This document shows positions 1-18,807 of a DNA stretch of 32,113 nucleotides, piece after piece. Numbering within the stretch: position 1 is the first letter of the stretch; every line of letters starts with the position of its first letter. The DNA is from Gammaproteobacteria bacterium (GTDB lineage: Bacteria > Pseudomonadota > Gammaproteobacteria > JAPPPA01). The notes under the pieces are model-generated. The model was not told where the DNA came from, made no database searches, and was given only the letters and a program-made list of their open reading frames with translations. Where the stretch lies: NCBI GenBank assembly GCA_028817755.1, contig JAPPPA010000087.1:1-32113 (forward strand), written 5' to 3'. Made by a program: the position numbers and the translations under genes.

Positions 1-253
1 GCGCGGTACGGCTCGCGTAAGTACGGGATGGACAGATTTAGCCGTTGTTCTATTCCGTAAGCCCTGGCAGTTAATAATCGCCTTATTACACCTTTAGTTA
101 TAAATAAAACAGTAATTAACTAATCGCTCTAATTTGTTGATTTATAACCATTGCGGTGGCTAATCCAAGTGATTAATTTACCCTCGTCCAAAATTGACCG
201 ATCGGTCTGTTTATTTTGGGGGATAACTTGCATAGCATTTGGGGAAGCTAACA

Positions 254-2119
254 ATGGAACAGCAACGCACTCGTACCGCGTTCAGAAAAGCCCGTGCCAT
301 TCTGGCAGGCGCGGCATTAACAGCCTTGGCAACAGGCTGTGTCAGCACACACAACGTCAACATGGAAGAAGATCGCGCAGCGAATTTGCGTAATGACATG
401 TTGCGCCTAGCGGAAAGCCGCATGGTGCTGCCGGATAAACCACTCACCCTGCATGAGGCCATTAACTTTGCCTTGGTGCATAACCTTGATTTGCGTGTTG
501 CCGAGCTAGAGCAAGAAATTGCTGAAGATGATGCTTTGGCGGCTCGTTTGGGCATGTTGCCTAATTTGAACCTGAACGCTTCTCGCACGCGTCGCTCAGA
601 AGATCGCACGCAGGATTACATCGACGCTGATACCGGCGTGGTGCAAACCTCTAACTCGTTGAGTTCGTTCAAAAACTCCTTAACCGGTGATCTGAGCCTG
701 ACTTGGAACGTGCTGGATTTTGGTATGTCTTGGGTGCGCTCTCGCCAAGCGGGTTATCAAACCCGGATTGCTGATTTACAGCGCTTACGCCAAGCACAGT
801 TACTTGCACTGGAAATCACCAACTCTTACTGGCGCGCTGCGCTTGCAGAAGACAGTCTAGATTACATTCGTGCGGTAGCCGCCGAGATGCGCACGCAGAA
901 AGACATGATTGAGCGCAGCGTAGCCGAGAAGCGCGTTGATCCCATCATGGCAAAAGACGCACAGCGTCGAATTGTTGAACTAGAAATCACAATCCGGGAT
1001 TTGCAGGCAGAAGTGTCTAGCTCGCGGATCGAACTGTCGCGCTTGATGGGTCTACGTCAGGGCCAAGACTTCAAATTAGAGCGTGAAGCGATTCGCCCTA
1101 TTTTGGCTGGGTTGCCGCGCCCGCATCAGCTGGATATCGAGTTGCTTGAAGGTCATGCGCTACACAACCGTCCTGAGCTATTCGCGGCAGACTTCCAAGA
1201 GAAAATCAGCCGCGACAATGTGCGGGCTGAACTGCTTTCAATGTTTCCCGATCTGACCTTTGGCATCGGCCGTCACTACGATGACAACCGCTTATTGCAT
1301 GCGAACGAATGGAACACCGTGGGCGTAAACTTTGGTTGGAATCTACTTAAGCTACCTACCATTAGTAAGCGTAAAGCGGCACGTGAGCACGAGCTAGAAC
1401 AAAGCCAATACGAGCGCCTGCAAACTACCGTTGGTATTGTGACGCAGGTTCATCTGTCGTTATTGGACTACGCGGTAAAAGTTGATCGCATGATGTTGTT
1501 GGAAGAGTCATACACCTTGGCGCATGACCTTTTGAGCATGGTGCGTGAGCACAACCGCGTCGGCAAAATTTCGGATTTGGCCGTTACCGAGCGCGTGCTG
1601 CAAGACCTTGCTGCGAAGATGCGTCGCGATCAGTCGGTTGTTGATGTCATGGTCTCGTACCGTCGCATGCTGTCTAGTTCGGGTGTTGACCTGTCTTACT
1701 GGAATTCCGACCTAAACGAGCTGGCATTGCTGAAACAAGGTGGCAATAAAGCGCTAGCTGAGAGCGTCAAGCCAGAGGCTCGCATTGTTGCGCACCACAA
1801 CGGTTTACAAGAAACCAGCAACTTATTCCCGTGGACGCTACAAGTTGGCGCCTATCGCAATGAAGCCGCATTAGCGCCACAGCTAGAGAAGGCTAATGCC
1901 TTAGTCCGTCGCTTGCTTAACCGCGCAGAGCCAGTTGTTACACGTCACCCCAATCCGGGCGGCGGTAATATTTTCCGTGCCCGTTATCTTGGTTTCACTG
2001 AGAAACAAGCACGCCATGCCTGTGATGTGCTGAAAAGCAAAGGTATGGATTGCTGGGTAGACAAGCACGACCCAACCCTACGCGTTGGCCAACAGGTTGC
2101 ACTGCATAGCAACCGCTAA
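254..2119 (+). CDS. TolC/OEP-family outer-membrane channel lipoprotein with a C-terminal SPOR (peptidoglycan-binding) domain
   Basis: The track ORF is 239..2119 and starts on TTG. I prefer the ATG at 254, which follows a GGGGAAG Shine-Dalgarno-like run. The N-terminus MEQQRTRTAFRKARAILAGAALTALATGC is a signal peptide plus a lipobox Cys. The long helical, L/R/Q/E-rich body is typical of TolC-type outer membrane factors (motifs such as LTLHEAINFALVHNLDLRVAELE and ALHNRPEL). The last ~80 aa fit a SPOR pattern. Confidence 0.8.
   Translation: MEQQRTRTAFRKARAILAGAALTALATGCVSTHNVNMEEDRAANLRNDMLRLAESRMVLPDKPLTLHEAINFALVHNLDLRVAELEQEIAEDDALAARLGMLPNLNLNASRTRRSEDRTQDYIDADTGVVQTSNSLSSFKNSLTGDLSLTWNVLDFGMSWVRSRQAGYQTRIADLQRLRQAQLLALEITNSYWRAALAEDSLDYIRAVAAEMRTQKDMIERSVAEKRVDPIMAKDAQRRIVELEITIRDLQAEVSSSRIELSRLMGLRQGQDFKLEREAIRPILAGLPRPHQLDIELLEGHALHNRPELFAADFQEKISRDNVRAELLSMFPDLTFGIGRHYDDNRLLHANEWNTVGVNFGWNLLKLPTISKRKAAREHELEQSQYERLQTTVGIVTQVHLSLLDYAVKVDRMMLLEESYTLAHDLLSMVREHNRVGKISDLAVTERVLQDLAAKMRRDQSVVDVMVSYRRMLSSSGVDLSYWNSDLNELALLKQGGNKALAESVKPEARIVAHHNGLQETSNLFPWTLQVGAYRNEAALAPQLEKANALVRRLLNRAEPVVTRHPNPGGGNIFRARYLGFTEKQARHACDVLKSKGMDCWVDKHDPTLRVGQQVALHSNR
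1832..2065 (+). other. SPOR-like domain-coding segment at the 3' end of the TolC-like gene
   Basis: The translation is WTLQVGAYRNEAALAPQLEKANALVRRLLNRAEPVVTRHPNPGGGNIFRARYLGFTEKQARHACDVLKSKGMDCWV. This matches the beta-alpha-beta-beta-alpha-beta SPOR signature: (W/Y)xxQVGAF/Y..., an aromatic-R-V/Y strand, then A..C..L...G..C.V. Confidence 0.6.
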
Positions 2120-2151
2120 GCAGTCCTACCAACAAAGCTAGGGGAAAGGCT

Positions 2152-5100
2152 ATGCGTAAATTAGAAGAACGCGTTGTATTAGATGCGGCAGTAGGGGTGA
2201 TTGCCGATGATGTTGTAGCGCAAGAAAACTCCATCAAAGCTGGTGGTTTAGAAGCGAACAACAATCAAGGCACGCAAGTTGATGAGGGCGCCACGCGCCC
2301 TATCACTTCGGCAGAGCTTGAATTTAGTTCTGACCGGCCAGCTCAAAACATCGTATACACCATTACCGACCTGCCTGATCACGGGCAGGTTTTGCTCGAC
2401 GGCAGTGCGACCAACAGCTTTACGCAAGCCGATATTAATAATGGCCTCGTAACGTACGAACACGATGGTGGCGAAGGCACTGGTGACGATGGCTTTAGCT
2501 TTGATGTTAAGGATGACCTGACCGGAGAGGCGTCAGGGCAGTTCACTATTTTTGTGAACCCGATTAACGATGAAAACCCAGATGTTGACCTTAATGGCAG
2601 CAACTCAGGTCGTGGTTTTATCGCTAACTTTGCTGAGGATAGTGACCCCATCGCTATTGTTAATGCTGGCCAAGTTGATATTACTGACCCTGACTCAGAC
2701 GCTACCAGTTTGCAGAGCCTATCGATTCGCCTAACCAACAACCTCAATGGCCAAGAAGAATTTCTGCAGGTGGATGTTGGTAATACCGGGATTGAAGCCA
2801 ACCTTAGTTACAGCAACGGCGAGGCCCTGCTAACGCTTAGTAATGAAGCCAGCATTGAAGCTTATGAAGCGGTTCTGAATACATTGGAATACGGCAATAC
2901 CGCTAACAACATCGACACCACAGGCCGAGTGTTAGAAGTCACTGCGCTTGATGGTGTTAATACCAGTGATATTTCCACCATTTTGATCAACTTGAGTGCG
3001 AGCAACGACGCCCCCGCGTGGTCGCACCCCGATAGCCAAGCCGCGGTAGAAGAAACGCCAACACTCATCAGTGGCATTACCGTGGCCGACCCTGATGCGA
3101 ATGGTGGTGAGTTAGATGTGGTGTTGAGTGTGAGTAATGGCACGCTTTCCATCCCCGCTGACAGCGGCTTGTCAGTGCTAGAGGACAACAACACCGCGCA
3201 GTTGCATTTGCGTGGCACGGCAGATCAGCTAAATACCGCATTGGCCGAATTGCGTTATACCGGCGGCCAAGATTTTAATGGTGTTGATACGCTTAACCTG
3301 TCAGTAAACGACCTAGGCAATACCGGCGGGCCTGCGCTAACGGCAACCAGCAGTATGGAAATTGACCTGTCTGTTCCAGAGGTCAGCGCCGTTAACGACG
3401 CGCCGGTGATTAGCGCACCTAGTGCCATCACGATTAATGAAGATAACAGCGTAACGTTTACCGACATTACTATCAGTGATGTTGATGCCGGTGATGACGT
3501 GGTACGCGTGCAGTTATCCGTGCCGGTGGGTAGCTTAAGCTTGCCGAGCATTCAGGGCCTAAACCTAATCCAAGGTGACAATGGCGCCGGGCCAACGCTT
3601 GAGTTTGAAGGTACGCTAAACGACATTAACGCCGCCTTAAACGGCTTGGTATATACGCCGCCGGCAAACTTTGCTGGCTCGGCTCCAATCAATATCAGCG
3701 TTAATGATCAAAGCCAACTTAACCCGGGTGCGTTGACTGATGATCACCAGATTGCCGTTACCGTTGCGCCGCAAAATGACGCGCCGGCTTGGACCAACCC
3801 GGCTAGCCAAGTAGCTGTTGAAGAAACCCCGACTTTGCTGAACGGCATTTCCCTCGCCGATATTGACGCTGCAGATGGCGTGCTAGATGTCACCCTAACG
3901 GTATCGCATGGCACCTTAAATCTGCCGCAGGGTAGTTTGTCGCTATTAGAAAATAACGACAGTGCCAGTATTCATTTACAGGGTGACTTAGCGAGCATTA
4001 ACCAAGCATTAACCGAGCTACGCTATACCGGTGGCCAGGACTTTAATGAGCTCGACGAGCTGCAACTAGTTGTTAACGACCTAGGCAATACCGGTGGTGG
4101 CGACCTAGTTGCGAATAGCAGTATGGTGATTGACCTGTCTAACGCCAGTGTCAGTGCGGTGAATGACGCGCCCGTTATTTCAGCGCCGACCCAAGTTCAG
4201 ATCAATGAAGATGCCTCCGTTACCTTTACTGATATCAGCATTAGTGATGTTGATGCGGGTGACGACTTGGTACAAGTAACACTGAGTACGGTTGATGGCA
4301 CATTAAGTTTGCCGCAAACGGATGGCCTTAACTTCAGCCAGGGTAATGGCAACAACAACCCCACTTTGGTGTTTGAAGGCACGGTTGAGGATGTAAACGC
4401 GGCCTTGGACGGCCTAGTTTTTACCCCTGCCGTTGACTTCAATGGTGAAGCGGCCATCAACTTGAACGTTGACGATCAAAGCCAGCTTAACCCGGGTGCA
4501 ATGAATGATAGTCACACGATTACCGTCAATATTGCGCCGCAAAATGATGCGCCAGAGCTAGTTACTAATGACACGCTGACGATTGTTGATCCGTCTTCTG
4601 CGGTAACGATTACTAGCGATTTATTGTCGAGCAGCGATGTGGATCATGCTGATACCGAGGTTCAGTTCACGATTACGGCTTTGCCTGAAAATGGTGAGCT
4701 GTTATTGGATGGTCAGCCGCTAGCTGAAGGCGACATGTTTACTCAGGCTGATATTGATGCCGGTCTGCTTACTTACGTGCCATTGAATAATGGTGCCTTG
4801 GCAGATGGGTTTGAGTTTCAGTTAAGCGACCCTGACACCGTCGGCGCGCAAGCCGCTAGCGGCACACCGTTTCAAATTGTTTATGCTGCGCCGGGTAAGG
4901 CACTGGGTGGTGTATCAACACCAGAGAATTACACCGCAGCAGAAGATCTATTTGCTTATCCACCTTATGAGCCGGTTCAGTCGCAGCCGCTTGTTGCTAG
5001 CGAATTTGGGCAAGGCGATAACGGTTTGGATATGAGCCGTCCGGACTATTTTGAAAATGCCGTGAATGGTATTAATGGTTTGGAAGCGTCACTGGAAAAC

Positions 5101-5502
5101 AGCGCCTTGGCTGCGAGCGGCATCAATGGGGCCAATGCTAGCGGTGGCATGACAGATGCTTACGGCAGTGGTGAAAGTATTTTGCGTAGCTGTAGCGAAG
5201 TAGCTGGTCTAGGTGGATGCAATTTAGCGGCGAGCGACAGCGTAGAAAGCCGCTTGTCGAATACTCAACCGGAATTGCTAGGTCGCTATTTGGATGACGG
5301 CCTGTTGACCACGAGTACCGCCGCGCCGGGCACGCAGCAAGGCATTGTTGAGCCAGAGCTATTAACAGCCGCTGCTGAGTGCAACCACTTAAATGAAGCG
5401 CCACAAACCTTTGCCGGTGACTATCAGCAACAGCAAGCTGAGAGTTGTCCAGTAGAAGACCAAGCCAGCAATGCAGCAGCTGAGGCTAGCGCTGGGGCTT
5501 AG
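2152..5502 (+). CDS. Large acidic cadherin-like / NDAP tandem-repeat surface protein (1116 aa); likely secreted adhesin-type substrate
   Basis: The ATG at 2152 follows AGGGGAAAGG. The N-terminus MRKLEERVVLDAAVG resembles the LE(P/E)R(I/V)xxDAA start of giant non-Sec repeat proteins and has no hydrophobic signal peptide. There are two flanking cadherin-like modules (ITSAELEFSS...YTITDLPDHGQVLLDG...FTQADINNGLVTYEHDG and ITSDLLSSSDVDH...FTITALPENGELLLDG...FTQADIDAGLLTYVP). The central modules are delimited by the recurring NDAP motif. The protein is D/N/T/S-rich and has no Cys until the last ~110 aa. Confidence 0.85.
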   Translation: MRKLEERVVLDAAVGVIADDVVAQENSIKAGGLEANNNQGTQVDEGATRPITSAELEFSSDRPAQNIVYTITDLPDHGQVLLDGSATNSFTQADINNGLVTYEHDGGEGTGDDGFSFDVKDDLTGEASGQFTIFVNPINDENPDVDLNGSNSGRGFIANFAEDSDPIAIVNAGQVDITDPDSDATSLQSLSIRLTNNLNGQEEFLQVDVGNTGIEANLSYSNGEALLTLSNEASIEAYEAVLNTLEYGNTANNIDTTGRVLEVTALDGVNTSDISTILINLSASNDAPAWSHPDSQAAVEETPTLISGITVADPDANGGELDVVLSVSNGTLSIPADSGLSVLEDNNTAQLHLRGTADQLNTALAELRYTGGQDFNGVDTLNLSVNDLGNTGGPALTATSSMEIDLSVPEVSAVNDAPVISAPSAITINEDNSVTFTDITISDVDAGDDVVRVQLSVPVGSLSLPSIQGLNLIQGDNGAGPTLEFEGTLNDINAALNGLVYTPPANFAGSAPINISVNDQSQLNPGALTDDHQIAVTVAPQNDAPAWTNPASQVAVEETPTLLNGISLADIDAADGVLDVTLTVSHGTLNLPQGSLSLLENNDSASIHLQGDLASINQALTELRYTGGQDFNELDELQLVVNDLGNTGGGDLVANSSMVIDLSNASVSAVNDAPVISAPTQVQINEDASVTFTDISISDVDAGDDLVQVTLSTVDGTLSLPQTDGLNFSQGNGNNNPTLVFEGTVEDVNAALDGLVFTPAVDFNGEAAINLNVDDQSQLNPGAMNDSHTITVNIAPQNDAPELVTNDTLTIVDPSSAVTITSDLLSSSDVDHADTEVQFTITALPENGELLLDGQPLAEGDMFTQADIDAGLLTYVPLNNGALADGFEFQLSDPDTVGAQAASGTPFQIVYAAPGKALGGVSTPENYTAAEDLFAYPPYEPVQSQPLVASEFGQGDNGLDMSRPDYFENAVNGINGLEASLENSALAASGINGANASGGMTDAYGSGESILRSCSEVAGLGGCNLAASDSVESRLSNTQPELLGRYLDDGLLTTSTAAPGTQQGIVEPELLTAAAECNHLNEAPQTFAGDYQQQQAESCPVEDQASNAAAEASAGA
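3004..4542 (+). repeat. In-frame tandem duplication inside the large CDS: two ~770-bp units (3004-3774 and 3775-4542), each made of an A module (NDAPAW...) and a B module (NDAPVISAP...)
   Basis: Unit boundaries are read from the sequence: AAC GAC GCC CCC GCG TGG at 3004, AAT GAC GCG CCG GCT TGG at 3775, AAT GAT GCG CCA GAG at 4543. The B modules start at 3394 and 4162. The units align residue for residue, for example ELRYTGGQDFN, VNDLGNTGG, SAVNDAPVISAP, ISDVDAGDD, DQSQLNPGA. By eye roughly two-thirds of residues are identical. Confidence 0.9.
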
Positions 5503-7565
5503 TGGAAGGCTTACTAAACACCGTTCAGATTGAGCAGCGTGTGGCGGCAATGCTTGCCGCCCTGCCTTTGCCATGGCAGCCACTGCGGCCTGAGTTGGTG
5601 TTGCATCCAAGTGGTGGTGGCAGTTCGGTGTTGGAGGATCCGCAGTCCGGTCAGCTATATGATTTGAACCAAGCTGAAGCGTTAGCGCTACGGCGCTTGG
5701 TCAGCGCAAATGAACAGGAGCTGGTAGGTCACTGCAAGCAGCTTTTGTCTGACAACACACTAACGATAGCCGCTTTGCAGCAGTTGTTAATTCAGTGCCA
5801 ACAAAGTGGCTTATGCCGTGGTCAGTCGCCAGCACCATCGTCTGCAGCGTGGTCACCCTATTGGCGCTTACCGCTTTGGCGGCCGCAGCGTTTTCTTGAA
5901 TCAACATTGCCACTCATGCAGCCGCTGTTTAGTCCGGCTGCTGGGTACGTGATTTTCATTCTGGGCTTGATCGGCATAGCAGGCATTGCGCCGCAGCTGG
6001 ACTTATATGTGGGTACGGTTAATTACCTCACTACAGCCACTGGAGCGTTCTGGTTTGTACTGTGTTTGCTGTTGCTAAAGCTGAGTCATGAGCTTGCACA
6101 TGCTTTCACCGCAGTGAGGCACGGTGTGCCTGTGCGCCAAATAGGTGTGTTGTTTATTTTGATTTGGCCGTTGTTGTATACCGATGTGACTGACGCGTGG
6201 AAGTTAAAAAATCGCAGGCAGAGAGCGGCTATTGCGTTGGCAGGTATTCGCTTTGAGTTAGCGGTAGCAGCGGTTGCGGCTTGTTTCTGGCTATTTTTAC
6301 CAGACGGCTTACTGCGTAGTTTGGCATTTATATTCTCGGGTACGGCTTTAGTCAGTTCTTTGCTGATTAACGCCAACCCTCTGATGCGCTTTGACGGTTA
6401 CTACGCATTAATGGATTTATGGGGTATTGCCAATCTGCAGCAGGTTGCTGGCGAGCATTGCCAAGCGTGGCGTCGGGCGAAAATGTGGGGCTCGGTAGCA
6501 CCGCAGAAACAGCCGAGGTTGCTGATGTATGGCTACGCAGCCTGGGTGTGGCGCTGTTTAATCGCCGTCACTATGACGCTAGTTAGCTGGCAAATATTAG
6601 GGCCCGCTGCGGGCATATTAATCGCTGTCTTTTTTGCGCGGTCGGTGCTTTGGCAGCCGTTGCGCCAAGAGCAGCAGTATTTAAAACAGTCGGGAGCGTG
6701 GCGCAGTATGCGGGCAAAAAAAACAGGGCTGGTAGCCATGCTGGTGTTGGCCGTATTTTGTGTGCCAATGCCACAAAAGCAGCGTTTGGCGGCAGTTGTT
6801 TCTGCTGCTGATCAATATCAACACAGCTTACCGGTGCCGGCGACACTTACAACTGTATTGCCCGAGTTGGGGCAAACCTTTGCCTCTGGCGACTTACTTG
6901 CTGTGTTTGATAGCGCTTCCCTACAGCGGGATAAGGCATTGGCCGAGCAGGAAAAGTCGTTGCGCCAACGCCAATTGGACGCGTTGTTGCTAACAGGTGA
7001 ACAAGGCGGCAAGCGGGCAACGGCAGCGGCAGAGCTCAGCCGGGCGAGCCAGCAATTGCTCGCAATCGAAGAAAAATTAGCTGCCCTAACCCTGCAGTCT
7101 GAATCGCAACAAGTGGTGCTATCTCGTCATGACGACTTAAAGGTAGGTGACACCCTTCAAGCGGGCGATGCCTATTTAGTTACCGCTAACCCAGAAGCCG
7201 CGACGATTGATATTTATTTGTCGCAAAAGCAGCTGAAGCAATGGCAGCAACTGGAACAGCCGCAGCTAGAAATGGAGTTGCGGTTGCCGAATGGGCAGCG
7301 GCACCGGCTGTTTTTGGATATCGCAGCTTACAGCCCAAGTATTCAGTTCAATGTGCCTGCTGTTTTGTTTGACCTAGCTGGCGGCCCTATTCCATCCCGC
7401 CCAGCGGCGGGTCATGCCTCGGGTGGGCAGGCATTAGGCAGTTGGTATCAACTACGTGTACCAGCCAATATCGCGGCGCCGTATTTGCAAATGCCTGCGA
7501 CAGCGTCGTACGTCGGCGAATGGCGTAGCTTAATTTCGCGCTTGGTCGCTCAGTTCAGTTTGTAA
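5502..7565 (+). CDS. Fusion protein: PqqD-like N-terminal region + peptidase M50 (site-2 protease) transmembrane core + HlyD-type membrane-fusion (periplasmic adaptor) C-terminal half
   Basis: The GTG at 5502 overlaps the upstream TAG by 1 nt (TAGTG); an alternative ATG lies at 5550. HELAH (in SHELAHAFTAV) sits in a hydrophobic segment, and NANPLMRFDGYYAL supplies the NxxPxxxxDG second S2P motif, with several TM helices between them. The C-terminal ~270 aa have a lipoyl-like hairpin (FASGDLLAVFD ... LKVGDTLQAGDAYLV) flanking a coiled coil (LQRDKALAEQEKSLRQRQLDALLL...LLAIEEKLAAL), as in HlyD/MFP proteins. The N-terminus LVLHPSGGGSSVLEDPQSGQLYDLNQAEALALRRL resembles a PqqD/RRE-type fold; that part is inference. 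Confidence 0.8.
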   Translation: MEGLLNTVQIEQRVAAMLAALPLPWQPLRPELVLHPSGGGSSVLEDPQSGQLYDLNQAEALALRRLVSANEQELVGHCKQLLSDNTLTIAALQQLLIQCQQSGLCRGQSPAPSSAAWSPYWRLPLWRPQRFLESTLPLMQPLFSPAAGYVIFILGLIGIAGIAPQLDLYVGTVNYLTTATGAFWFVLCLLLLKLSHELAHAFTAVRHGVPVRQIGVLFILIWPLLYTDVTDAWKLKNRRQRAAIALAGIRFELAVAAVAACFWLFLPDGLLRSLAFIFSGTALVSSLLINANPLMRFDGYYALMDLWGIANLQQVAGEHCQAWRRAKMWGSVAPQKQPRLLMYGYAAWVWRCLIAVTMTLVSWQILGPAAGILIAVFFARSVLWQPLRQEQQYLKQSGAWRSMRAKKTGLVAMLVLAVFCVPMPQKQRLAAVVSAADQYQHSLPVPATLTTVLPELGQTFASGDLLAVFDSASLQRDKALAEQEKSLRQRQLDALLLTGEQGGKRATAAAELSRASQQLLAIEEKLAALTLQSESQQVVLSRHDDLKVGDTLQAGDAYLVTANPEAATIDIYLSQKQLKQWQQLEQPQLEMELRLPNGQRHRLFLDIAAYSPSIQFNVPAVLFDLAGGPIPSRPAAGHASGGQALGSWYQLRVPANIAAPYLQMPATASYVGEWRSLISRLVAQFSL

Positions 7566-7580
7566 TCGCTAGGCTATCGA

Positions 7581-7611
7581 TTCAGAACATCCGGCATAGG
7601 CCCCGTATAAT
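7581..7611 (+). promoter_or_regulatory. Candidate sigma70 promoter for uup (TTCAGA-N19-TATAAT)
   Basis: A perfect TATAAT lies at 7606-7611, 31 nt upstream of the uup start. The -35 hexamer is weak and the spacing is suboptimal. Confidence 0.3.
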
Positions 7612-7642
7612 GCGCCGCCTAAGCTATTAAAGGGTCTGAGTC

Positions 7643-9505
7643 TTGTTGCTGTCATTGCGCGAGGTGTCGCTGGCGTATAGCCAAACACCGTTACTCAATC
7701 AGGTTAATTTCCAAGTCGATGACGGCGAGCGTGTGTGCTTAGTCGGCCGTAACGGCGCCGGCAAGTCGAGCCTGATGAAAATCATCGCCGGTGATATTGA
7801 AGCCGATGCTGGTGAGCGAAACACCAAAGACCAGCTACGCGTGGCGCGCTTGGTGCAAGACGTGCCGCACGACATTAGTGGCACGATTTACGACGTTGTC
7901 ACCGCAGGCCTTGGCGGTATTGGCGAGTTGATTAACCAATATGAACAAGCCGCCGGGCGAGGTGATTCAGCCGATGTGTTACTACCGCTGCAGCAGCAGA
8001 TTGAAACCCAAGGTGGTTGGGACGCTAAGCGCCAAGTAGATGAAGTGCTGTCGCGTATGCAGCTCGACGGTATGACGCTGTTTGAAAACCTCTCTGGGGG
8101 TTTAAAGCGCCGTGTACTGCTAGCGCAAGCGTTGGCTAGTGACCCGCAATTGCTGCTGTTAGATGAGCCCACTAACCACCTCGATATTGAAGCCGTGCAG
8201 TGGCTAGAAAACTTCATCCGCAACGGCAGTTTTGCGGTGGTGTTTGTCACCCACGATCGGGCCTTCTTAGATGCCATTGCCACACGTATTGTCGAGGTCG
8301 ATCGCGGCAATCTGCATAACTTCCCCGGCCGCTATAGCTTGTACCGAGAACGCAAAGCCGAGCAGCTGGAAATTGAGCAAAAGAACAAAGCCGACTTCGA
8401 CAAAGTGCTGGCAGAAGAAGAAGCCTGGATTCGTCGCGGTGTTAAAGCCCGTACCAAGCGCAATATTGGCCGCGTAAAACGCCTAGAAGATTTACGCGAA
8501 GAAGCTGATGGCCATCAGAAATACCAAAAACGTGCCAGCATTAAGGCGCAAATGGCAGAGAACACCGGCAAGCGGGTTATTGAAGCTAAAAACCTGAGTT
8601 ACAGCATTGCCGGTAAACCACTGGTTAAAGACTTCACCCTCAAAATTCTACGCGGCCAAAAGATTGGCTTGATGGGTCCAAATGGCTGCGGCAAAACCAC
8701 CCTGCTGCGTTTGTTGTTGGGTGAGTTAGAAGCGGATAGTGGCACCCTCATTGAAGGCACTAACCTACAAGTGGGTTATTTCGACCAAACCCGCAAAGCG
8801 CTTAAGCTCGATAAAACCGCGGCATGGAACGTTGCCGAAGGCTACGAGAAAATTGATTTTGATGGCCGCGCCTTGCACGTGTTGGGCTATTTAAAAGCCT
8901 TCCTGTTTACGCCAGATCGCGCTAACTCTTTGGTAGAGGTGTTGTCAGGTGGTGAACGCAACCGTCTACTCTTGGCACGCCTCTTTGCCCACCCTGCCAA
9001 TGTCTTGGTGATGGACGAGCCCACTAACGACCTCGACGTTGAAACGCTCGAGTTATTAGAAGATTTGGTAAACAACTTCGCCGGCACCGTGTTGCTGGTG
9101 TCGCACGACCGGGCCTTTGTGAATAACGTGGTCGACTCGCTGATTGTGTGGGACGGCGACGGCGAGTTTGATTACTTTGTTGGTAACTACGATGACTGGT
9201 TACGCCAACGTAAGCAGGAGCAAAAGGCGCAGCAGGCCAAAGCCGTGCCTGTGGCTAAACCGGCGGCAAAAAAATCCACCAAACTCAGTTACAAATTGCA
9301 GCGTGAGTTAGATCAGCTCCCCGCCACTATTGAAGCCTTAGAAGAAGCTATCGAGGCCGCTGGTGAAGCGATGGCGCAGCCGGAGTTTTTCAAACAGTCG
9401 GCCGACGCCATTACCGCGGCTCAGGCGACACTGGCGGAGCAGCAAGCTGAATTAGAAAACGCATATACCCGCTGGGAAGAATTAGAGGCACAGAAAAATG
9501 GCTAA
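7643..9505 (+). CDS. uup: ABC-F family ATPase Uup (two ABC cassettes, C-terminal coiled-coil DNA-binding tail, no membrane domain)
   Basis: Collinear with E. coli Uup along the whole length as I recall it: VCLVGRNGAGKSSLMKI, LSGGLKRRVLLAQAL, LLLLDEPTNHLDIE, GLMGPNGCGKTTLLRLLLGEL, LSGGERNRLLLARLF, LVMDEPTNDLDVETLELLE, KLSYKLQRELDQLP, ending WEELEAQKNG. The start is TTG with AAGGG upstream. Confidence 0.93.
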   Translation: MLLSLREVSLAYSQTPLLNQVNFQVDDGERVCLVGRNGAGKSSLMKIIAGDIEADAGERNTKDQLRVARLVQDVPHDISGTIYDVVTAGLGGIGELINQYEQAAGRGDSADVLLPLQQQIETQGGWDAKRQVDEVLSRMQLDGMTLFENLSGGLKRRVLLAQALASDPQLLLLDEPTNHLDIEAVQWLENFIRNGSFAVVFVTHDRAFLDAIATRIVEVDRGNLHNFPGRYSLYRERKAEQLEIEQKNKADFDKVLAEEEAWIRRGVKARTKRNIGRVKRLEDLREEADGHQKYQKRASIKAQMAENTGKRVIEAKNLSYSIAGKPLVKDFTLKILRGQKIGLMGPNGCGKTTLLRLLLGELEADSGTLIEGTNLQVGYFDQTRKALKLDKTAAWNVAEGYEKIDFDGRALHVLGYLKAFLFTPDRANSLVEVLSGGERNRLLLARLFAHPANVLVMDEPTNDLDVETLELLEDLVNNFAGTVLLVSHDRAFVNNVVDSLIVWDGDGEFDYFVGNYDDWLRQRKQEQKAQQAKAVPVAKPAAKKSTKLSYKLQRELDQLPATIEALEEAIEAAGEAMAQPEFFKQSADAITAAQATLAEQQAELENAYTRWEELEAQKNG

Positions 9506-10166
9506 TGACGCAACAATGAAAACCGCCTTGGTTCTAGGCGGTAGCGGGCTTATCGGCCGTATGCTGATTGACGAGCTCTTGGCTTCTGGTCACTACGGCA
9601 AAGTTACCGCCTTGCTGCGAAAAGAACTCAGCGCTGCGCCAGCAGAGTTAGATCAACAGATTGTGGATTTTGAGTCGCTATTAACTGAGCAGTTACCACT
9701 GGTAGCCGATGACGTGTTTTGCTGTTTAGGCACTACGCAGAAAACGGTAGGTGGAGATAAAGATAAGTTCTATCGCATTGATCACGATTACCCAGTGGAA
9801 CTCGCAAAACTGGCTCAAGCCGGCGGCGCTAAGCGTTGTTTTGTTGTTTCTGCTACCGGCGCTAACTCTAAGAGCCGCTTCTATTACAACCGCGTCAAAG
9901 GTGACATGGAGCGCGACCTAAAGACACTGGGATTTGATGCGTTGCATATCTACCAACCGTCGTTATTGATTGGTTCGCGAGAGCATTTAGATCAGCTAAA
10001 TCGCGGTGGCGAATTTGTGGGCCAAAAGTTAATGCCGCTAATGAATCCGTTTCTACAGGGCAGCTTGCGCAAGTTTCGTCCAACGCATGCTACGGCGGTA
10101 GCGCAGGCGATGTGTGCAGATTCAGGCCGCGATAGCCGCGGTGTGGAAATTCATCATTTCGAATAG
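9498..10166 (+). CDS. YraR-like NAD(P)H-binding (atypical SDR / HTATIP2-like) protein
   Basis: Rossmann motif LVLGGSGLIGR. The blocks VFCCLGTT, FVVSATGANSKSRFYYNRVKGDMERDL and YQPSLLIG match E. coli YraR. The ATG at 9498 overlaps the uup stop by 8 nt; an alternative ATG lies at 9516. Confidence 0.8.
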   Translation: MANDATMKTALVLGGSGLIGRMLIDELLASGHYGKVTALLRKELSAAPAELDQQIVDFESLLTEQLPLVADDVFCCLGTTQKTVGGDKDKFYRIDHDYPVELAKLAQAGGAKRCFVVSATGANSKSRFYYNRVKGDMERDLKTLGFDALHIYQPSLLIGSREHLDQLNRGGEFVGQKLMPLMNPFLQGSLRKFRPTHATAVAQAMCADSGRDSRGVEIHHFE

Positions 10167-10195
10167 CGAAGCGCTAAGCCGCTAGCTGGCTTGTG

Positions 10196-10813
10196 TTAAT
10201 CGCGCGCCTCGGCCATGCGCTCGCTGCCGAGCATAATCATGCGTAATTGCAGCACTAAGCGAGCAGCCAACTCAGAGCGGCTGTCGGCCGACATGCTAAG
10301 CGCATTACCGGCGCCGCCAAAGGTGATCGCCACAATGGCGTCGGCCGTGGTGTAAGCGTCGGCGATGGGGCGCTCCTTCGCTTGGCCTAAGCGTTCTAAA
10401 TCTTCGGCAAGCTCGTTTGTGAAGTAACGGATTTCGGTGCGAATGGCTCGGCGCCAGCTTTCCGAGCCGGTGCCCTGTTCACGCAGCAGCATGTGGAACA
10501 GCTGTGGCTCGCGGGCAATATGATCAAACAATGCGTTTACCGATACGTCCAACACCGACTGGCTCGTCACTAGCTTTTGGCGTGCTTCGCGCATCACGGT
10601 ACGCAGGCTTTGCCCGGCAACATCTACTAGGGCCAGGCCAAGATCTTCCATATCGTCGAAGTGCCGATAAAAAGCGTTGGGTGCCAAGCCAGCTTCGCGC
10701 GCTACCTCACGCAGGCTTAAAGAGCCAAAACTACGCTGTTGATTGAGTAGGCCTAAAGCCGCGTCAATTAGGTTCTGACGTGTTTGTTGTTTCTTGTCTG
10801 TGCGCGTGCTCAT
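10196..10813 (-). CDS. desT: TetR-family repressor of unsaturated fatty-acid synthesis (FabR/DesT type)
   Basis: SFGSLSLREVAREAGLAPNAFYRHFDDMEDLGLALVD and LVLQLRMI are near-identical to the E. coli FabR HTH and C-terminal blocks. The gene is divergent from a reductase-desaturase pair, as in the Pseudomonas desT-desCB locus. Confidence 0.85.
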   Translation of the reverse strand: MSTRTDKKQQTRQNLIDAALGLLNQQRSFGSLSLREVAREAGLAPNAFYRHFDDMEDLGLALVDVAGQSLRTVMREARQKLVTSQSVLDVSVNALFDHIAREPQLFHMLLREQGTGSESWRRAIRTEIRYFTNELAEDLERLGQAKERPIADAYTTADAIVAITFGGAGNALSMSADSRSELAARLVLQLRMIMLGSERMAEARD

Positions 10814-14256: not shown

Positions 14257-15738
14257 TTGGGGTTATCAAAAGTATTTACCCGGGCCTTAAAGGGCTTGGA
14301 TGCGCCAGCAGTGGTAGTTGAAGTGCATGTGTCTGGCGGCTTGCCGACGATGAACTTAGTGGGCTTGCCAGAAGCGGCTGTACGAGAAGCGCGTGATCGC
14401 GTGCGCAGCGCTATTCAGAACAGTGGTTTTGAATTTCCTGCGAGTCGTGTCACGGTTAATTTGGCCCCCGCCGATATTCCCAAAGAAGGCGGTGCTTTTG
14501 ATGTGCCCATAGCGCTGGGTATTTTGGCTGCGACAGGTCAATTGAATGCAGATGCGTTGGATGATGTTGAGGTGCTGGGTGAGCTGGCATTAAACGGTGC
14601 GCTGCGACCAATTAAAGGCGCTTTGCCGGTAGCGATGGCGGTTGCCAAGGGCCAAAGGGCGTTGGTTTTGCCAGAAGCCAGTGCTGCCGATGCCGCCTTG
14701 GTACAGGATTTGTCAGTGCACTATGCTCATCATTTGGCCGATGTGGTGGCGGCGTTTAATAGTGGCAAAGCACTGTCTCGGTTCACGCAGAGCGAGCCGA
14801 GCAACGAGCTGTTGTCGCAGTTAGATATGGCTGATGTTAAAGGCCAACAGCAAGCGAAGCGGGCTTTAATGGTTGCTGCTGCGGGGAGTCATAACGTGTT
14901 GATGGAGGGGCCGCCGGGCTCTGGAAAATCGATGCTAGCCAAGCGTTTGCCCAGTATTTTGCCGACCTTGAGTAATGCTGATGCGTTGGAGGTGGCAGCC
15001 ATTCGTTCTTTGTCTGGCGCGCCGATTTCAGCAGACGAGATGCATCTGGCGCCATTCCGCTCGGTGACATCATCCGCTTCTCAGGTTGCTCTTTTGGGAA
15101 GCAAAAATCCGGGTGAGATCACCTTGGCGCATGCTGGCGCATTGTTCATGGATGAACTGGTTGAGTTTCCCCGCGCATGCTTGGAGGCGTTAAGAGACCC
15201 GTTAGAGAACGGCTATATCGATATTTCTCGTGCGGCGTATAAGTATCGGTATCCATCTCGCTTCCAGCTTGTGGCAGCGATGAATCCTTGCCCTTGCGGC
15301 GATCCCGACAACTGTCGCGATACGCCAGATCAAATTGCACGTTATCGGGCAAAGCTATCTGGCCCGATATTGGACCGTATTGATGTGCATTTGCATGTGC
15401 CGAGAGTGAAATATCAGGAACTGAAAGATTCGTCGTCTGGTAGCAACAGTAAAACGCTGCGTGGCCAAGTGGTTGCCGCACGTGAGCGACAGTTGGCACG
15501 ACAAGGTAAAACCAATGCTTGGCTTAGCGCGGCGGAAATTGAAAAAATTGCTAATCGCAGCGAGGCGGCGGAAACCTTATTGGAAAATGCGATGACAAAG
15601 CTTGGCTTAACGGCGCGTGGTTATCATCGTTTATTGAAAGTTGCACGAACGATTGCAGATTTAGATGCTAGTGAACAAATTGCAGCTGAACATATGGCGG
15701 AAGCGATTGGTTATCGCCAGCTAGACCGTTGGCACTAG
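14257..15738 (+). CDS. comM: ComM/YifB-family Mg-chelatase-like AAA+ ATPase (competence-associated helicase family)
   Basis: VEVHVSGGLPTMNLVGLPEAAVREARDRVRSAIQNSGFEFP...VNLAPADIPKEGGAFDVPIALGILAA matches the YifB N-terminus. Walker A is GPPGSGKSM, and the C-terminal block is GYHRLLKVARTIADLD. The start is uncertain: the track GTG at 14215 lies inside the upstream terminator stem, so I use the in-frame TTG at 14257. Confidence 0.88.
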   Translation: MGLSKVFTRALKGLDAPAVVVEVHVSGGLPTMNLVGLPEAAVREARDRVRSAIQNSGFEFPASRVTVNLAPADIPKEGGAFDVPIALGILAATGQLNADALDDVEVLGELALNGALRPIKGALPVAMAVAKGQRALVLPEASAADAALVQDLSVHYAHHLADVVAAFNSGKALSRFTQSEPSNELLSQLDMADVKGQQQAKRALMVAAAGSHNVLMEGPPGSGKSMLAKRLPSILPTLSNADALEVAAIRSLSGAPISADEMHLAPFRSVTSSASQVALLGSKNPGEITLAHAGALFMDELVEFPRACLEALRDPLENGYIDISRAAYKYRYPSRFQLVAAMNPCPCGDPDNCRDTPDQIARYRAKLSGPILDRIDVHLHVPRVKYQELKDSSSGSNSKTLRGQVVAARERQLARQGKTNAWLSAAEIEKIANRSEAAETLLENAMTKLGLTARGYHRLLKVARTIADLDASEQIAAEHMAEAIGYRQLDRWH

Positions 15739-16907
15739 GCTTTATTCAGCTGCATTATCTTGGCTAGCTTTGGCTCTGGTTGCGGCACCTTTTCGAATAG
15801 CTCAACACAGTTCCGGCCGTTACGTTTTGCCGCGTATAGGGCAATGTCGGCCTGATTAATTAAGGTGTCGGGGCGTGTATTTTCTTCTGGCCGTAAGCAA
15901 GCAATACCTACGCTAATAGTGGTGTGGATTGGCATGCCATCGACTAATAGTGGCGTGGTTTCAACGGCTTTACGTAATCGCTCGCCAAGATCTGCTGCGG
16001 CCGTGTAGTTTGTGTTGCGCAAGAGTACGCCAAACTCTTCGCCACCGTATCGGGTGACAACATCCTGTGTCCTGATTTTGCTGGACAGGATAACGGCAAG
16101 CGCTTGTAGTGCTTTATCGCCAGCAGGGTGGCCATAATCGTCGTTGACGCTTTTAAAGTGATCTACATCGAGCATCAGCAGGCATAGAGGTAGCTTGTGA
16201 CTGCGAGCTTGGCTCCAAGCGTCTTCTAGGTAGTTATCAAAACTGAGCCGATTTAACAGGCCGGTTAAGTAATCGTGCGTGGCTTGGTGTTGGTACAACG
16301 CTTGGCGTGCAGCGACGGCGTCGTGTTGGCTATGCAATTGGATCAGCGCGCGCTCAATGCGGCGTAGTGCCGACATTAATGTGACGAACCCGGGGTTGCT
16401 TAATAGCAACCACATCAGTAGGTGGCGCCCGCCTTCTCGCATTGGGTCTTCCAGTAGCATGGGGATAACGAAAGCAAGGGTGGTGCCGCATAGCAATACG
16501 CAGGCTGCGATGCTCCACTTAAGCGCCAACTGGCTCGGGAAGACCATGAAGCAGAACAAGTACAGCAGCGGGAAGTGTGCAAACAGCACCAAAAACATGC
16601 TGTTGCTGCCATCCGCTAAAACCGGCCCTTGAAAGACACTAAGAATACGGCCTTCCAGTAGCACTACTATGGTGACAATAATCAGTGCCGTTGTGTAGGT
16701 GCTATGTTGCGGGTATTTCCACGCAACAAAACCAGCAAAGAGAAAGCTCATTGCTGCGGCAATGAAGAAAGGAGTCTCCCACCATTGCAACGGCAATGCT
16801 TGAATGACCCATGCTCCTGTTAAGCTGAGTAAGGCTAATACCGGTGTGCTGAGCAGTGCCGCCTTCCGTCTAACCTCATCCAGTGTTCTGATACTTGGCT
16901 GTTCCAT
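15735..16907 (-). CDS. Membrane-anchored diguanylate cyclase (multi-TM N-terminal sensor region + GGDEF domain)
   Basis: The N-terminal ~180 aa are hydrophobic helices. The GGDEF domain shows DYLTGLLNR, DVDHFKSVNDDYGHPAGD and RYGGEEF, with an RxxD I-site (RTQD) five residues upstream of GGEEF. Confidence 0.85.
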   Translation of the reverse strand: MEQPSIRTLDEVRRKAALLSTPVLALLSLTGAWVIQALPLQWWETPFFIAAAMSFLFAGFVAWKYPQHSTYTTALIIVTIVVLLEGRILSVFQGPVLADGSNSMFLVLFAHFPLLYLFCFMVFPSQLALKWSIAACVLLCGTTLAFVIPMLLEDPMREGGRHLLMWLLLSNPGFVTLMSALRRIERALIQLHSQHDAVAARQALYQHQATHDYLTGLLNRLSFDNYLEDAWSQARSHKLPLCLLMLDVDHFKSVNDDYGHPAGDKALQALAVILSSKIRTQDVVTRYGGEEFGVLLRNTNYTAAADLGERLRKAVETTPLLVDGMPIHTTISVGIACLRPEENTRPDTLINQADIALYAAKRNGRNCVELFEKVPQPEPKLAKIMQLNKA

Positions 16908-18085: not shown

Positions 18086-18781
18086 CTAACGAACCTGTAG
18101 AAACTCATCTACAGCTTTCTCTCGAGTCAAATCCATCGCTTGTTGAAAAGCTTTCATAAGGTTTGGGTATTCTGGTTTCTGATTCCACTCACCCCAAGCG
18201 GCTACTTCTGTATGAATGGGTAATTGCCACACAATATTGTTGTTGCGCAGGTCGACCAATTGGGCTGTAGCATTGGTTAGCCCGGTTGGATCACTCATTG
18301 GAATGAAACCGTAGTAGGCGCGTGCGGAGCCCAATGTGTTCACCTGTAATAAATATAGGTAATCAGCGTTGTGCCGAGACCGAAGACTAGAAAAGTCCTT
18401 TGCGGTTTGTACGTTCGCTTTGCCGCCAGACTTAGGCAGTGCGTTGAGATCGATAGGCCCAATTTGTTTAACTTCAGCCCCGCGAGCGGTTAGGCCCTTA
18501 GCAACGTCTGAAATGGTTTGCTGGATCGGTTTGAGGTCTGCTTGCTTTAGTCGGTCACTGACGGGTGATGTCACTGCGGCAGCGATCGCTAAGTCAAGCA
18601 GGCCTTGGCTGCCCATTTTGTGCAAGCCGGGCTCAGGTAGCGTGTTGCTGGCGACTGCCACCGTTTTATTTTCGATGCCTTGCCAAAAATTGCCTCGATT
18701 GTCGATCGATTTAGGTGCGGTTACGCACCCAGCCATAACTAAACAGGCTACCCCAAAGCTAGCAAGCTTTAACCCTTTCAT
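18086..18781 (-). CDS. Lipoprotein of unknown function (231 aa)
   Basis: MKGLKLASFGVACLVMAGC is a signal peptide plus lipobox. AGGGGA SD. It lies 26 bp downstream of the TraT-like gene. I recognise no family, but it shares the short motif YL(Y)LLQVNTL with the TraT-like protein. Confidence 0.7.
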   Translation of the reverse strand: MKGLKLASFGVACLVMAGCVTAPKSIDNRGNFWQGIENKTVAVASNTLPEPGLHKMGSQGLLDLAIAAAVTSPVSDRLKQADLKPIQQTISDVAKGLTARGAEVKQIGPIDLNALPKSGGKANVQTAKDFSSLRSRHNADYLYLLQVNTLGSARAYYGFIPMSDPTGLTNATAQLVDLRNNNIVWQLPIHTEVAAWGEWNQKPEYPNLMKAFQQAMDLTREKAVDEFLQVR

Positions 18782-18807
18782 TTTTGTCCCCTAAGTAAGA
18801 TTAAGGC

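Follow-up and report, generated by a model that had tools for sequence, protein, structure and literature searches.

Results

The window, a 32,113-nt stretch of DNA comprising contig JAPPPA010000087.1 (GCA_028817755.1) of a Gammaproteobacteria bacterium, carries at its left end three closely packed forward-strand genes, which encode an outer-membrane factor (OMF; 254..2119), a giant repeat protein referred to here as the cargo (2152..5502) and an inner-membrane fusion protein (5502..7565). The spacer between the first two genes measures 32 nt and contains AGGGGAAAGG, in agreement with the Shine-Dalgarno-bearing gap described in the initial annotation, and the one-nucleotide overlap of the gene 2 stop (TAG) with the gene 3 start (GTG) is also as described. 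The downstream gene uup (7643-9505) does encode an ABC-F protein, and the TATAAT proposed upstream of it is found at about 7605-7610.

Although the genes, spacing and domains of this three-gene unit stand, its delimitation does not, as two more adaptor genes belong beyond the left contig end. Positions 1..97 of the forward strand hold the contig-cut 3' end of a GAF-TM-MFP adaptor gene, X (MFP, membrane-fusion protein): the last 31 codons plus the stop, in frame 2. The translation of nt 2-97, RGTARVSTGWTDLAVVLFRKPWQLIIALLHL followed by the stop, agrees with the X C-terminus in two related contigs, L088 and L001. L088 is collinear with window positions 1-10097 at 95.6% identity and has X (411 aa) just upstream of its OMF gene, preceded in turn by sMFP (248 aa), a gene for a short adaptor with a signal peptide; L001 likewise has two extra genes directly upstream. 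Because of the X remnant and the upstream genes of L088, we read the operon as sMFP, X, OMF-SPOR, cargo and RRE-M50-MFP. By this comparison of contigs, the operon has five genes, of which the window holds the three on the right, with sMFP off the left contig end. The GAF and MFP assignments of X are both supported by searches, and sMFP is also assigned to MFP. For all three adaptor domains of the operon, the best sequence and fold matches are MacA, MexA, AcrA and EmrA.

Gene 1 encodes a TolC/NodT-like OMF from an ATG at 254; a TTG at 239 is an alternative start, and position 254 fits the 621-aa gene call in L088. The protein has two OEP repeats (Pfam OEP, 147.7 bits) and ends in a peptidoglycan-binding SPOR domain (Pfam, 31.6 bits, residues 531-607). 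Its N-terminus is a single hydrophobic segment followed by Cys, a lipoprotein-type signal (..LATGC), so that its first description as a TolC-SPOR lipoprotein holds.

The 1116-aa cargo is a cadherin-like/Big_9 repeat protein (Pfam scores: Cadherin_3 130.4, Cadherin_4 81.8, Big_9 62.7). As had been claimed, it is huge and acidic (D+E 15%, K+R 2%), and it contains no hydrophobic segment and no Sec or Tat signal. GGxGxD motifs, and hence RTX repeats, number zero in the window cargo, and RTX is absent from the other cassette cargos too. Identity to the L001 cargo is 52-57%, the window protein having one additional block of about 269 aa. In Nitrospira, the C-terminal end of the cargos consists of a hydrophobic helix, the conserved motif PAW(R/Q)xFDPLPVL and a basic tail. 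Such a hydrophobic anchor is missing from most cargos, that of the window among them.

The giant proteins adjacent to the cassette have in common an N-terminal LEPR-XLL-type motif with the consensus aLE(P/S/E)R(I/L/V)x(F/L)D(A/G)AAxAT, the window form being MRKLEERVVLDAA. Here its core, LEERVVLDAA, occupies residues 4-13 (2161..2190, forward strand) and is a candidate leader or recognition tag. Its match to NCBIfam NF012209 is weak (12.9 bits, below the cut-off of 17), whereas the L073 cargo clears the LEPR-XLL model at 17.7 bits. In 418,397 ORF residues the motif is found 40 times, where a rough residue-frequency estimate predicts about 0.1 occurrences. The 39 distinct instances catalogued are all N-terminal and belong to proteins encoded next to a cassette, and a six-frame scan of the window returns the cargo N-terminus as its single match. 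The tag is specific to cassette-adjacent giants and is the strongest clue to cargo recognition. It had been overlooked in the initial annotation.

Gene 3 encodes a 687-aa protein from a GTG start, which profile and fold matches and an AF2 model (pLDDT 93, pTM 0.77) divide into RRE, M50 and MFP portions. The predicted cytoplasmic RRE (residues about 20-105; 5559..5816), modelled as three beta-strands followed by three helices, matches TfuB1 (6jx3_B, E=1.6e-6) and TbiB1 (5v1u, E=1.1e-4) in profile searches, which bears out the earlier guess of a PqqD-like domain; weak Pfam PqqD matches occur in 4 of 32 fusion-family members. The transmembrane core (residues about 120-400; 5859..6701) is an M50 site-2 protease, as had been proposed (Pfam Peptidase_M50, 44.5 bits, cut-off 27.2). 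Its catalytic motifs HExxH (H196, E197, H200; nt 6087-6101) and NxxPxxxFD (N290, P293, F297, D298; nt 6369-6395) are invariant across 112 homologues, and MjS2P and RseP align with the protein at HExxH in the profile search.

A last TM helix (residues 403-420) leads into the predicted periplasmic MFP half (together 6708..7562), which is modelled with a lipoyl/barrel-sandwich domain, an alpha-hairpin (H472-497 and H503-527) and a beta-barrel. Profile searches match this half to MacA (4dk1, E=3.9e-15) and also to EmrA and HlyD, and Foldseek places its predicted fold with AcrA, MexA and MacA at about 1e-10. The window protein itself has no Pfam HlyD match; in an alignment of 25 relatives, window protein included, 19 pass HlyD_3 and 14 pass HlyD_D23. 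The claim that the C-terminal half is an adaptor, which was open to refutation by these searches, came through them, and by profile and predicted fold this half is a true membrane-fusion protein.

Across loci, the cassette has a four-gene core kept in the order OMF-sMFP-X-M50-MFP on a single strand, with a giant ORF alongside. This order is seen in Alpha-, Gamma- and Deltaproteobacteria, Nitrospira and Zetaproteobacteria, and in Parachlamydiales X and a giant ORF adjoin the fusion gene. Where 5 kb or more of upstream sequence is available (58 loci), OMF is present in 49, X in 50, sMFP in 45 and a giant ORF in 49. Tagged giants adjoin the cassette in the large majority of loci; L061, L064 and L069 have ample flank yet no giant ORF. 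Clustered at 50% identity, the fusion family amounts to about 7,000 clusters (7,046 representatives at E<=1e-30), and it has at least 597 matches in a species-representative genome set. Of 5426 complete E. coli genomes, 24 carry the cassette, for the most part on plasmids. On one such plasmid, pECTOK-001_2, IS elements bound the cassette together with a tagged DUF4347/Ig-like giant, consistent with a self-contained module. The composition first noted here is real and strongly conserved across loci: a TolC-like OMF and an M50-adaptor fusion combined with a giant cadherin-repeat protein that has no signal. A full-text literature search returned no published description of the cassette, in line with the initial annotation, which knew of no characterized pathway of this kind.

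The absence of an ABC exporter, likewise noted at the outset, was examined in the surroundings of the cassettes (up to 10 kb on either side) at 84 non-redundant loci. The core was linked to neither an ABC, RND or MFS transporter nor a conserved ATPase, and the alternative that would have refuted the initial proposal, an exporter consistently encoded next to orthologous cassettes, was not borne out. In these loci, NBDs turned up only in ABC-F proteins, in UvrA and as small importer-type domains at some distance. When all neighbouring ORFs were clustered, OMF, adaptors and giant proteins were the only conserved families. There is no ABC exporter elsewhere in the window and no ABC gene in the IS-bounded E. 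coli plasmid island.

Discussion

The cassette family is best explained as a very large, uncharacterized group of envelope-spanning systems for giant proteins with an N-terminal LEPR-XLL-type motif. We lean towards a dedicated, leader-guided apparatus for the export and processing of giant adhesin-like proteins. From adjacency and domain logic we infer that the cassette exports its cargo, and this export would proceed without an ATPase. RRE domains bind RiPP leader peptides, and we propose on that account that the cytoplasmic RRE of the fusion protein may bind the N-terminal tag of the cargo. The M50 protease would then cut off the tag, whether as a leader in the course of export or, at a later stage, to set the protein free. 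Leader or N-terminal proteolysis is coupled to export or surface retention in PCATs and in LapG/LapD, a functional analogy with the proposed role of the cassette, although those proteases are C39 or BTLCP rather than M50 and, unlike the fusion protein, PCATs have an ABC motor and LapG is periplasmic.

By homology to MacA, AcrA and EmrA, the three MFP paralogues may form a hetero-oligomeric periplasmic tube docked on the trimeric TolC-like OMF, through which the cargo would reach the surface, probably N-terminus first. As the cassettes have no linked ABC, RND or MFS partner or conserved ATPase within 10 kb, the cargo would have to cross the inner membrane by way of an oligomer of the fusion protein and X, unless a motor is encoded elsewhere in the genome. 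No ATPase-free, Sec/Tat-free mechanism is known to carry proteins of 1000-4000 aa over this membrane, which counts against the proposal; it is tempting to speculate that proton-motive force, an extracellular folding ratchet, or both could power this step, and that the GAF domain of X serves as a regulatory input.

With T1SS (HlyB-HlyD-TolC; LapB-LapC-LapE) the cassette shares a TolC-family OMF and HlyD/MFP-type adaptors and, as in T1SS for giant adhesins and RTX proteins, a huge acidic repeat cargo without a Sec signal is encoded beside the machinery. Unlike T1SS, it is without an ABC transporter, an RRE-M50 protease replacing the inner-membrane component; it has three adaptor paralogues instead of one, and its cargo has a conserved N-terminal tag in place of a C-terminal signal or RTX repeats. 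It is conceivable, if unlikely, that the cargo is a conventional T1SS substrate, which leaves the cell with its C-terminus ahead through an ABC transporter whose gene lies elsewhere, and that the cassette only retains, processes or releases it by capturing the N-terminal tag and cleaving it with M50, much as LapG/LapD controls LapA. Typical T1SS cargo includes giant acidic repeat adhesins that have no Sec signal, a type that the window protein fits, and the missing RTX repeats are not decisive since T1SS C-terminal signals are poorly conserved. The GAF domain on X would suit a regulated-release device, and the conserved di-alanine after the tag presumably recalls LapG sites, which we take as a lead only. 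However, T1SS genes normally adjoin giant substrate genes, and no ABC exporter lies within 10 kb in the 84 loci, some of which show both sides of the cargo gene. An OMF and three adaptors of its own would be redundant in a mere processing device, and the plasmid island bounded by IS elements, which has no ABC gene, also argues against this reading.

Rather improbable as well is a tethered surface fibre, in which the giant stays threaded through the adaptor/OMF duct with an anchor in the inner membrane, to be shed or retained depending on whether M50 cleaves. The helix, motif and basic tail of the Nitrospira cargos suggest inner-membrane anchoring opposite the tag, the SPOR domain of the window OMF ties the duct to peptidoglycan, and the GAF domain is available as a regulatory input. 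That most cargos, the window's included, have no such anchor speaks against it; in other respects, sequence data do not distinguish the fibre from leader-guided export and processing.

That the cassette serves small-peptide (RiPP/bacteriocin) export and maturation, or efflux, with the giants as coincidental neighbours, is highly improbable: RRE-S2P fusions do occur in RiPP pathways (PMC10036551) and the adaptors and OMF resemble drug-efflux parts, but the window, with only a 32-nt spacer and a 1-nt overlap between genes, has no space for a precursor ORF, no conserved small-gene or modifying-enzyme family accompanies the cassette in the neighbour clustering, and the tag of the adjoining giants is found nowhere else.

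The adaptor domains of the cassette match those of MacAB-TolC, EmrAB-TolC and AcrAB-TolC, and the modelled alpha-hairpin of the fusion protein would suit tip-to-tip OMF docking as in tripartite efflux pumps. Those pumps act on small molecules with ABC, MFS or RND partners, none of which is linked to the cassette, and the cargo encoded next to the latter is a protein, with a length of 800 to more than 4000 aa. The daptide RRE-site-2-protease fusion and the YydH/LiaK epipeptide protease likewise join an N-terminal RRE to an M50 intramembrane metalloprotease. Daptide fusions are the closest characterized relatives of the RRE and M50 portion: the window protein aligns to NCBIfam NF041824 over residues 33-379 at 162 bits, below the cut-off of 300. 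The gene neighbours of the fusion in daptide clusters include precursors that share a conserved leader motif (PMC10036551). Unlike the window protein, daptide proteases have no MFP domain; daptide substrates are short peptides, and the modification enzymes of their clusters are absent at cassette loci.

The best solved-structure matches of the fusion RRE, TfuB1 and TbiB1, are lasso-peptide B1 proteins with the same layout of three strands plus three helices. They stand alone, whereas the cassette RRE is fused to a protease-adaptor and would presumably bind a giant protein at its N-terminus. Lasso leaders have a YxxPxL motif (PMC10368454), which the P-x-[ILV] in the short conserved block of the cargo tag recalls as a resemblance only.

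A conserved cassette without a linked ABC exporter

The operon at the left end of the window extends beyond the three genes in which the initial annotation recognised a type I secretion-like cassette without an ABC ATPase. All three ORFs are present on the forward strand: gene 1 (254-2119) encodes a TolC-like outer-membrane factor with a SPOR domain (OMF-SPOR), gene 2 (2152-5502) a giant cadherin-repeat protein of 1116 aa, the cargo, and gene 3 (5502-7565), which begins with GTG, a 687-aa fusion of RRE, M50 and MFP parts. For gene 1, a TTG at 239 could also serve as start; the gene call of 621 aa in L088, a near-identical contig, favours 254. The close packing that had been described also holds, with a 32-nt spacer containing AGGGGAAAGG between genes 1 and 2 and one nucleotide common to the TAG stop of gene 2 and the GTG start of gene 3. 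It is the three-gene limit that was not borne out. Translation of nt 2-97 gives RGTARVSTGWTDLAVVLFRKPWQLIIALLHL and then a stop, matching the C-terminus of X, a GAF-TM-MFP adaptor of 411-414 aa whose gene, in relatives, immediately precedes that of OMF-SPOR. The contig begins within the last 31 codons of X (1-97, forward strand), which leaves most of X, and all of the short signal-peptide adaptor sMFP, off the window. L088, collinear with window 1-10097 at 95.6% identity, has the order sMFP (248 aa), X (411 aa), OMF-SPOR (621 aa), cargo (1116 aa), fusion (687 aa) and uup, and the order is the same in L001, a locus whose fusion protein is 56% identical to that of the window. As X and sMFP lie upstream in both relatives and the end of X is found in the window, we conclude that the window operon is cut by the contig end.

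Consensus scans for promoters and terminators over window 1-10300 gave nothing usable, with fewer promoter-like sites than in shuffled controls. The 156-nt spacer between X and OMF-SPOR (98-253) is AT-rich and, while no promoter was called there by the consensus scan, an internal one is possible. Directly downstream of the fusion gene is uup (7643-9505, forward strand), preceded by the TATAAT noted at annotation. The remainder of the window holds housekeeping genes and no ABC exporter, in line with the original reading, and in L088 a transporter is absent from the 10 kb further upstream of the cassette. A 774-aa membrane protein of the MMPL/RND superfamily (19964-22288, reverse strand) stands beside two ORFs of ~235 aa (18086-19530); it is not cassette-adjacent and was not found near the cassette in other loci.

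The fusion is widespread. A first search gave 402 matches among scored candidates, the fusion was confirmed in at least 597 of 600 candidate stretches from a one-genome-per-species collection, and the family comprises 7,046 cluster representatives at 50% identity (E ≤ 1e-30). When ORFs and family HMMs were mapped on 88 loci, one order recurred on a single strand, [giant] OMF-sMFP-X-M50-MFP [giant], in Alpha-, Gamma- and Deltaproteobacteria, Nitrospira (including Ca. N. defluvii) and Zetaproteobacteria; in Parachlamydiales the fusion gene is flanked by X and a giant ORF. Among the 58 loci with at least 5 kb upstream, OMF was found in 49, X in 50, sMFP in 45 and a giant ORF in 49, counts that are lower bounds, as the ORF caller sometimes gave opposite-strand ORFs for sMFP and X (for example in L004). 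All-against-all clustering of the neighbours revealed no further family kept in more than six loci. Public annotations are generic, such as 'HlyD family efflux transporter periplasmic adaptor subunit', 'putative peptide zinc metalloprotease' and 'biotin/lipoyl-binding protein'.

The absence of an adjacent ABC exporter, first noticed in the window, extends to the loci mapped: scans of all 88 for Walker A and LSGGQ motifs and with NBD HMMs returned only ABC-F proteins, UvrA and small distant NBDs. ORFs containing an NBD are rare, lie far from the cassette and are not of the exporter kind, comprising ABC-F, UvrA and importer NBDs. A run of five co-directional genes immediately follows the fusion gene in L063 (12363-18962), L017 and L078, and partly in L015 and L031. 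Their products are a coiled-coil protein, an unknown protein, an AAA ATPase of 634 aa (PF00004), DUF6638 and DUF2333. The set is confined to a small alphaproteobacterial/MAG group, in which it might serve as an accessory module or a motor specific to that lineage; as the motor of the cassette at large, the AAA ATPase/DUF6638/DUF2333 set is rejected because it follows the fusion gene in just 3-5 closely related loci. The uup product, correctly identified at the outset as an ABC-F protein without a TMD, is not the missing ATPase: besides lacking a TMD, it is found next to the cassette only in the window's own lineage. In the window, L001, L088 and the relative L094, uup immediately follows the fusion gene, and in other lineages it does not; its position is lineage synteny, and it is not a component of the system. 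In Ca. Nitrospira defluvii an ABC gene lies six genes upstream; this and similar cases amount to small, isolated NBDs without conservation.

The cassette is also carried by plasmids. It occurs in 62 plasmid records, including Azospirillum, Cupriavidus, Burkholderia, 18 E. coli and 8 Citrobacter plasmids, and in 24 of 5426 complete E. coli genomes, where copies are at least 99% identical; more plasmid copies occur in Citrobacter, Hafnia and Kosakonia, the DNA identity figure covering the E. coli copies. On pECTOK-001_2 (NZ_AP018397.1, 176839-196590; L090/L092) the complete cassette with its giant protein lies between IS5- and IS1-family elements, with no ABC gene inside, and reads DUF4347 ORF, 4179-aa Ig-like protein, TolC, 'RND adaptor', 'HlyD' and a second 'HlyD', which is the fusion. 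It looks like a self-contained mobile module. The DUF4347 ORF is separate, 267 aa long and tag-bearing, beginning MTTIKNRRLRPRAHRFALESRQLFDGAA, and may be the frameshifted N-terminus of the 4179-aa giant.

The cargo and its N-terminal tag

The repeats of gene 2 proved to be of the cadherin type expected, with Pfam domains Cadherin_3, Cadherin_4 and Big_9, and the protein is without any hydrophobic segment, consistent with the lack of a Sec signal inferred earlier. What the cargos have in common lies at the other end of the protein from a classical type I signal. Where the 5′ end is intact, almost all giants next to a cassette have near their N-terminus a tag of consensus aLE(P/S/E)R(I/L/V)x(F/L)D(A/G)AAxAT, in many cases with basic residues ahead of it. 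In the window cargo the tag is MRKLEERVVLDAA, which aligns with 38 others. A strict form of the pattern matched 40 times in 418,397 ORF residues, against ~0.1 matches expected by chance on our own residue-frequency estimate. The 39 distinct instances that we catalogued are in the N-terminal region of cassette neighbours, and a six-frame scan of the window found a single match. The tag is of the type of the NCBIfam LEPR-XLL domain (NF012209), which the related cargo of L073 passes with 17.7 bits against a cut-off of 17; the divergent variant of the window cargo scores 12.9 bits against the same cut-off. DUF4347 is also present on many cargos.

RTX GGxGxD motifs are absent from the window cargo and from 15 other complete cargos, and cargo C-termini show no conservation across clades. 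A cryptic C-terminal secretion signal on the cargo is still conceivable.

The window cargo exceeds the L001 cargo (7443-9986; 847 aa) by one two-domain block of ~269 aa, which shows that the number of repeats varies; both cargos keep the N-terminal tag and a four-cysteine C-terminal region of ~120 aa. Tandem Repeats Finder detected no DNA-level array in the cargo gene, the repeats being visible at the protein level only. In tagged giants of Nitrospira (L023, L030, L036, L047 and L060), the C-terminus is formed by a hydrophobic helix, the conserved motif PAW(R/Q)xFDPLPVL and a basic tail, which may be a membrane anchor or sorting signal. A C-terminus of this type is absent from the window cargo.

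A predicted leader-binding protease joined to an adaptor

An AF2 model of the fusion, built from a 112-sequence alignment (pLDDT 93, pTM 0.77), has three parts. The N-terminal domain (residues ~20-105) is modelled as three strands followed by three helices. It had been called PqqD-like, and over nearly its full length its profile aligns with TfuB1 (E=1.6e-6) and TbiB1 (E=1.1e-4), two lasso-peptide RRE proteins. Pfam PqqD has weak matches in 4 of 32 family members and none in the window fusion itself; some NCBI records name relatives 'PqqD family'. From profile and model together, we assign the domain a predicted RRE/PqqD-like leader-binding fold.

The second part is the anticipated M50 domain, with 44.5 bits to Pfam Peptidase_M50 (PF02163; cut-off 27.2), a family matched by 25/25 members. 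The HExxH residues (H196, E197 and H200) are invariant across the 112 sequences, as are N290, P293, F297 and D298, and the protease is therefore expected to be active. The last TM helix of the model (residues 403-420) leads into an adaptor with an alpha-hairpin (H472-497 and H503-527). That this C-terminal half is an MFP, as originally proposed, is seen in profile matches of the family to MacA (3.9e-15) and also to EmrA, ZneB and HlyD, and in Foldseek matches of the model to AcrA, MexA and MacA at ~1e-10. Pfam HlyD does not match the window fusion alone, and HlyD_3 is passed by 19/25 members of the family alignment.

The fusion is one of three HlyD/MFP-type adaptors in the cassette, with X and sMFP. 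The latter has a signal peptide and HlyD_D23 and HlyD_3 domains. In X, a single TM helix stands between a cytoplasmic alpha/beta domain and an MFP. Each of the 39 X proteins scanned passes both HlyD_3 and HlyD_D23, and Pfam GAF matches 8 of the 39 (best E-value 2.4e-6). The X model was built on 16 aligned sequences, the word-indexed homologue search having given few matches. Gene 1 is indeed a TolC-family OMF (Pfam OEP, 147.7 bits) with a lipoprotein-like signal and a SPOR domain (PF05036, 31.6 bits against a cut-off of 21, residues 531-607), the latter also present in L001 and L088. Against TIGR01844, the T1SS-specific OMF subfamily model, the window OMF scores 73.9 with a cut-off of 225, which leaves it outside that subfamily.

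Discussion

The export of giant adhesins is normally credited to type I secretion. The cassette shares with T1SS the HlyD/MFP-type adaptor and the TolC-family OMF, but no ABC transporter of its own for the inner membrane (TMD-NBD) accompanies the MFP gene, and its cargo does not display the C-terminal signal, usually with RTX GGxGxD repeats, of T1SS substrates. Because both the transporter and the C-terminal/RTX signal were looked for and not found, we do not class it as T1SS. The closest NCBIfam model to the fusion is the daptide intramembrane metalloprotease NF041824 (residues 33-379, 162.2 bits). In the daptide enzymes, the intramembrane site-2 protease carries an RRE at its N-terminus, and the precursors encoded next to them share a conserved leader motif (PMC10036551). 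The fusion is not a daptide protease, because this score is below the cut-off of 300 and the daptide gene context is absent, neighbour clustering having revealed no conserved daptide modification enzymes near the cassette. The periplasmic and outer-membrane half of the cassette resembles a tripartite system or T1SS, whereas the half in the cytoplasm and inner membrane resembles a RiPP leader peptidase. We would rate it among the envelope-spanning adaptor/OMF systems. Full-text literature yielded no description of a LEPR-XLL/M50-MFP system.

We propose a model where the RRE would bind the tag of the cargo and the M50 domain would cleave it, the OMF and the three adaptors would form a duct, and the giant protein would be exported, probably N-terminus first. 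It is tempting to speculate that inner-membrane crossing could be paid for by the PMF, by an extracellular folding ratchet or by a motor encoded elsewhere. In the main alternative, the cargo could be exported by a distant T1SS ABC transporter, with the cassette only retaining or releasing it. We consider this explanation less likely: ABC exporter genes are consistently absent near the cassette in the loci mapped, and the cassette brings its own OMF and adaptors. We consider it quite possible, if short of probable, that the cassette is an unrecognised and widespread diderm secretion system, in which giant adhesin-like proteins are selected through an RRE by their N-terminal LEPR-XLL leader, processing is by the intramembrane M50 protease, and passage is through a hetero-oligomeric three-adaptor/TolC-like duct with no ABC, Sec or other known ATPase.

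If true, this would be a new type of secretion system, working by a new energisation principle or through a protease-gated inner-membrane channel. The cassette, conserved across thousands of protein clusters, has the adaptor/TolC duct, with a predicted leader-binding intramembrane protease where the ABC motor would be. Export of the cargo by the cassette would mean a new route across the Gram-negative envelope, and would give a function to the unexplained LEPR-XLL/DUF4347 N-terminal motif. The cassette also connects RiPP leader recognition with envelope-spanning transport, fields that seldom meet. Biofilm formation, symbiosis and attachment to particles are shaped by giant repeat adhesins in bacteria of the sea, soil and wastewater, among them the nitrifier Nitrospira, Azospirillum and rhizobia associated with plants, and E. 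coli and Citrobacter strains that bear plasmids. With IS-bounded copies on E. coli plasmids and with hosts in culture, the question is open to direct testing, and pECTOK-001_2 offers a tractable host.

More speculatively, the GAF domain of X might act as a sensor. A GGDEF diguanylate cyclase is encoded ~8 kb downstream of the cassette (15735-16907, reverse strand), in a position kept in L094 (10346-11518, reverse strand); given the GAF domain on X, it could have a bearing on adhesin regulation.
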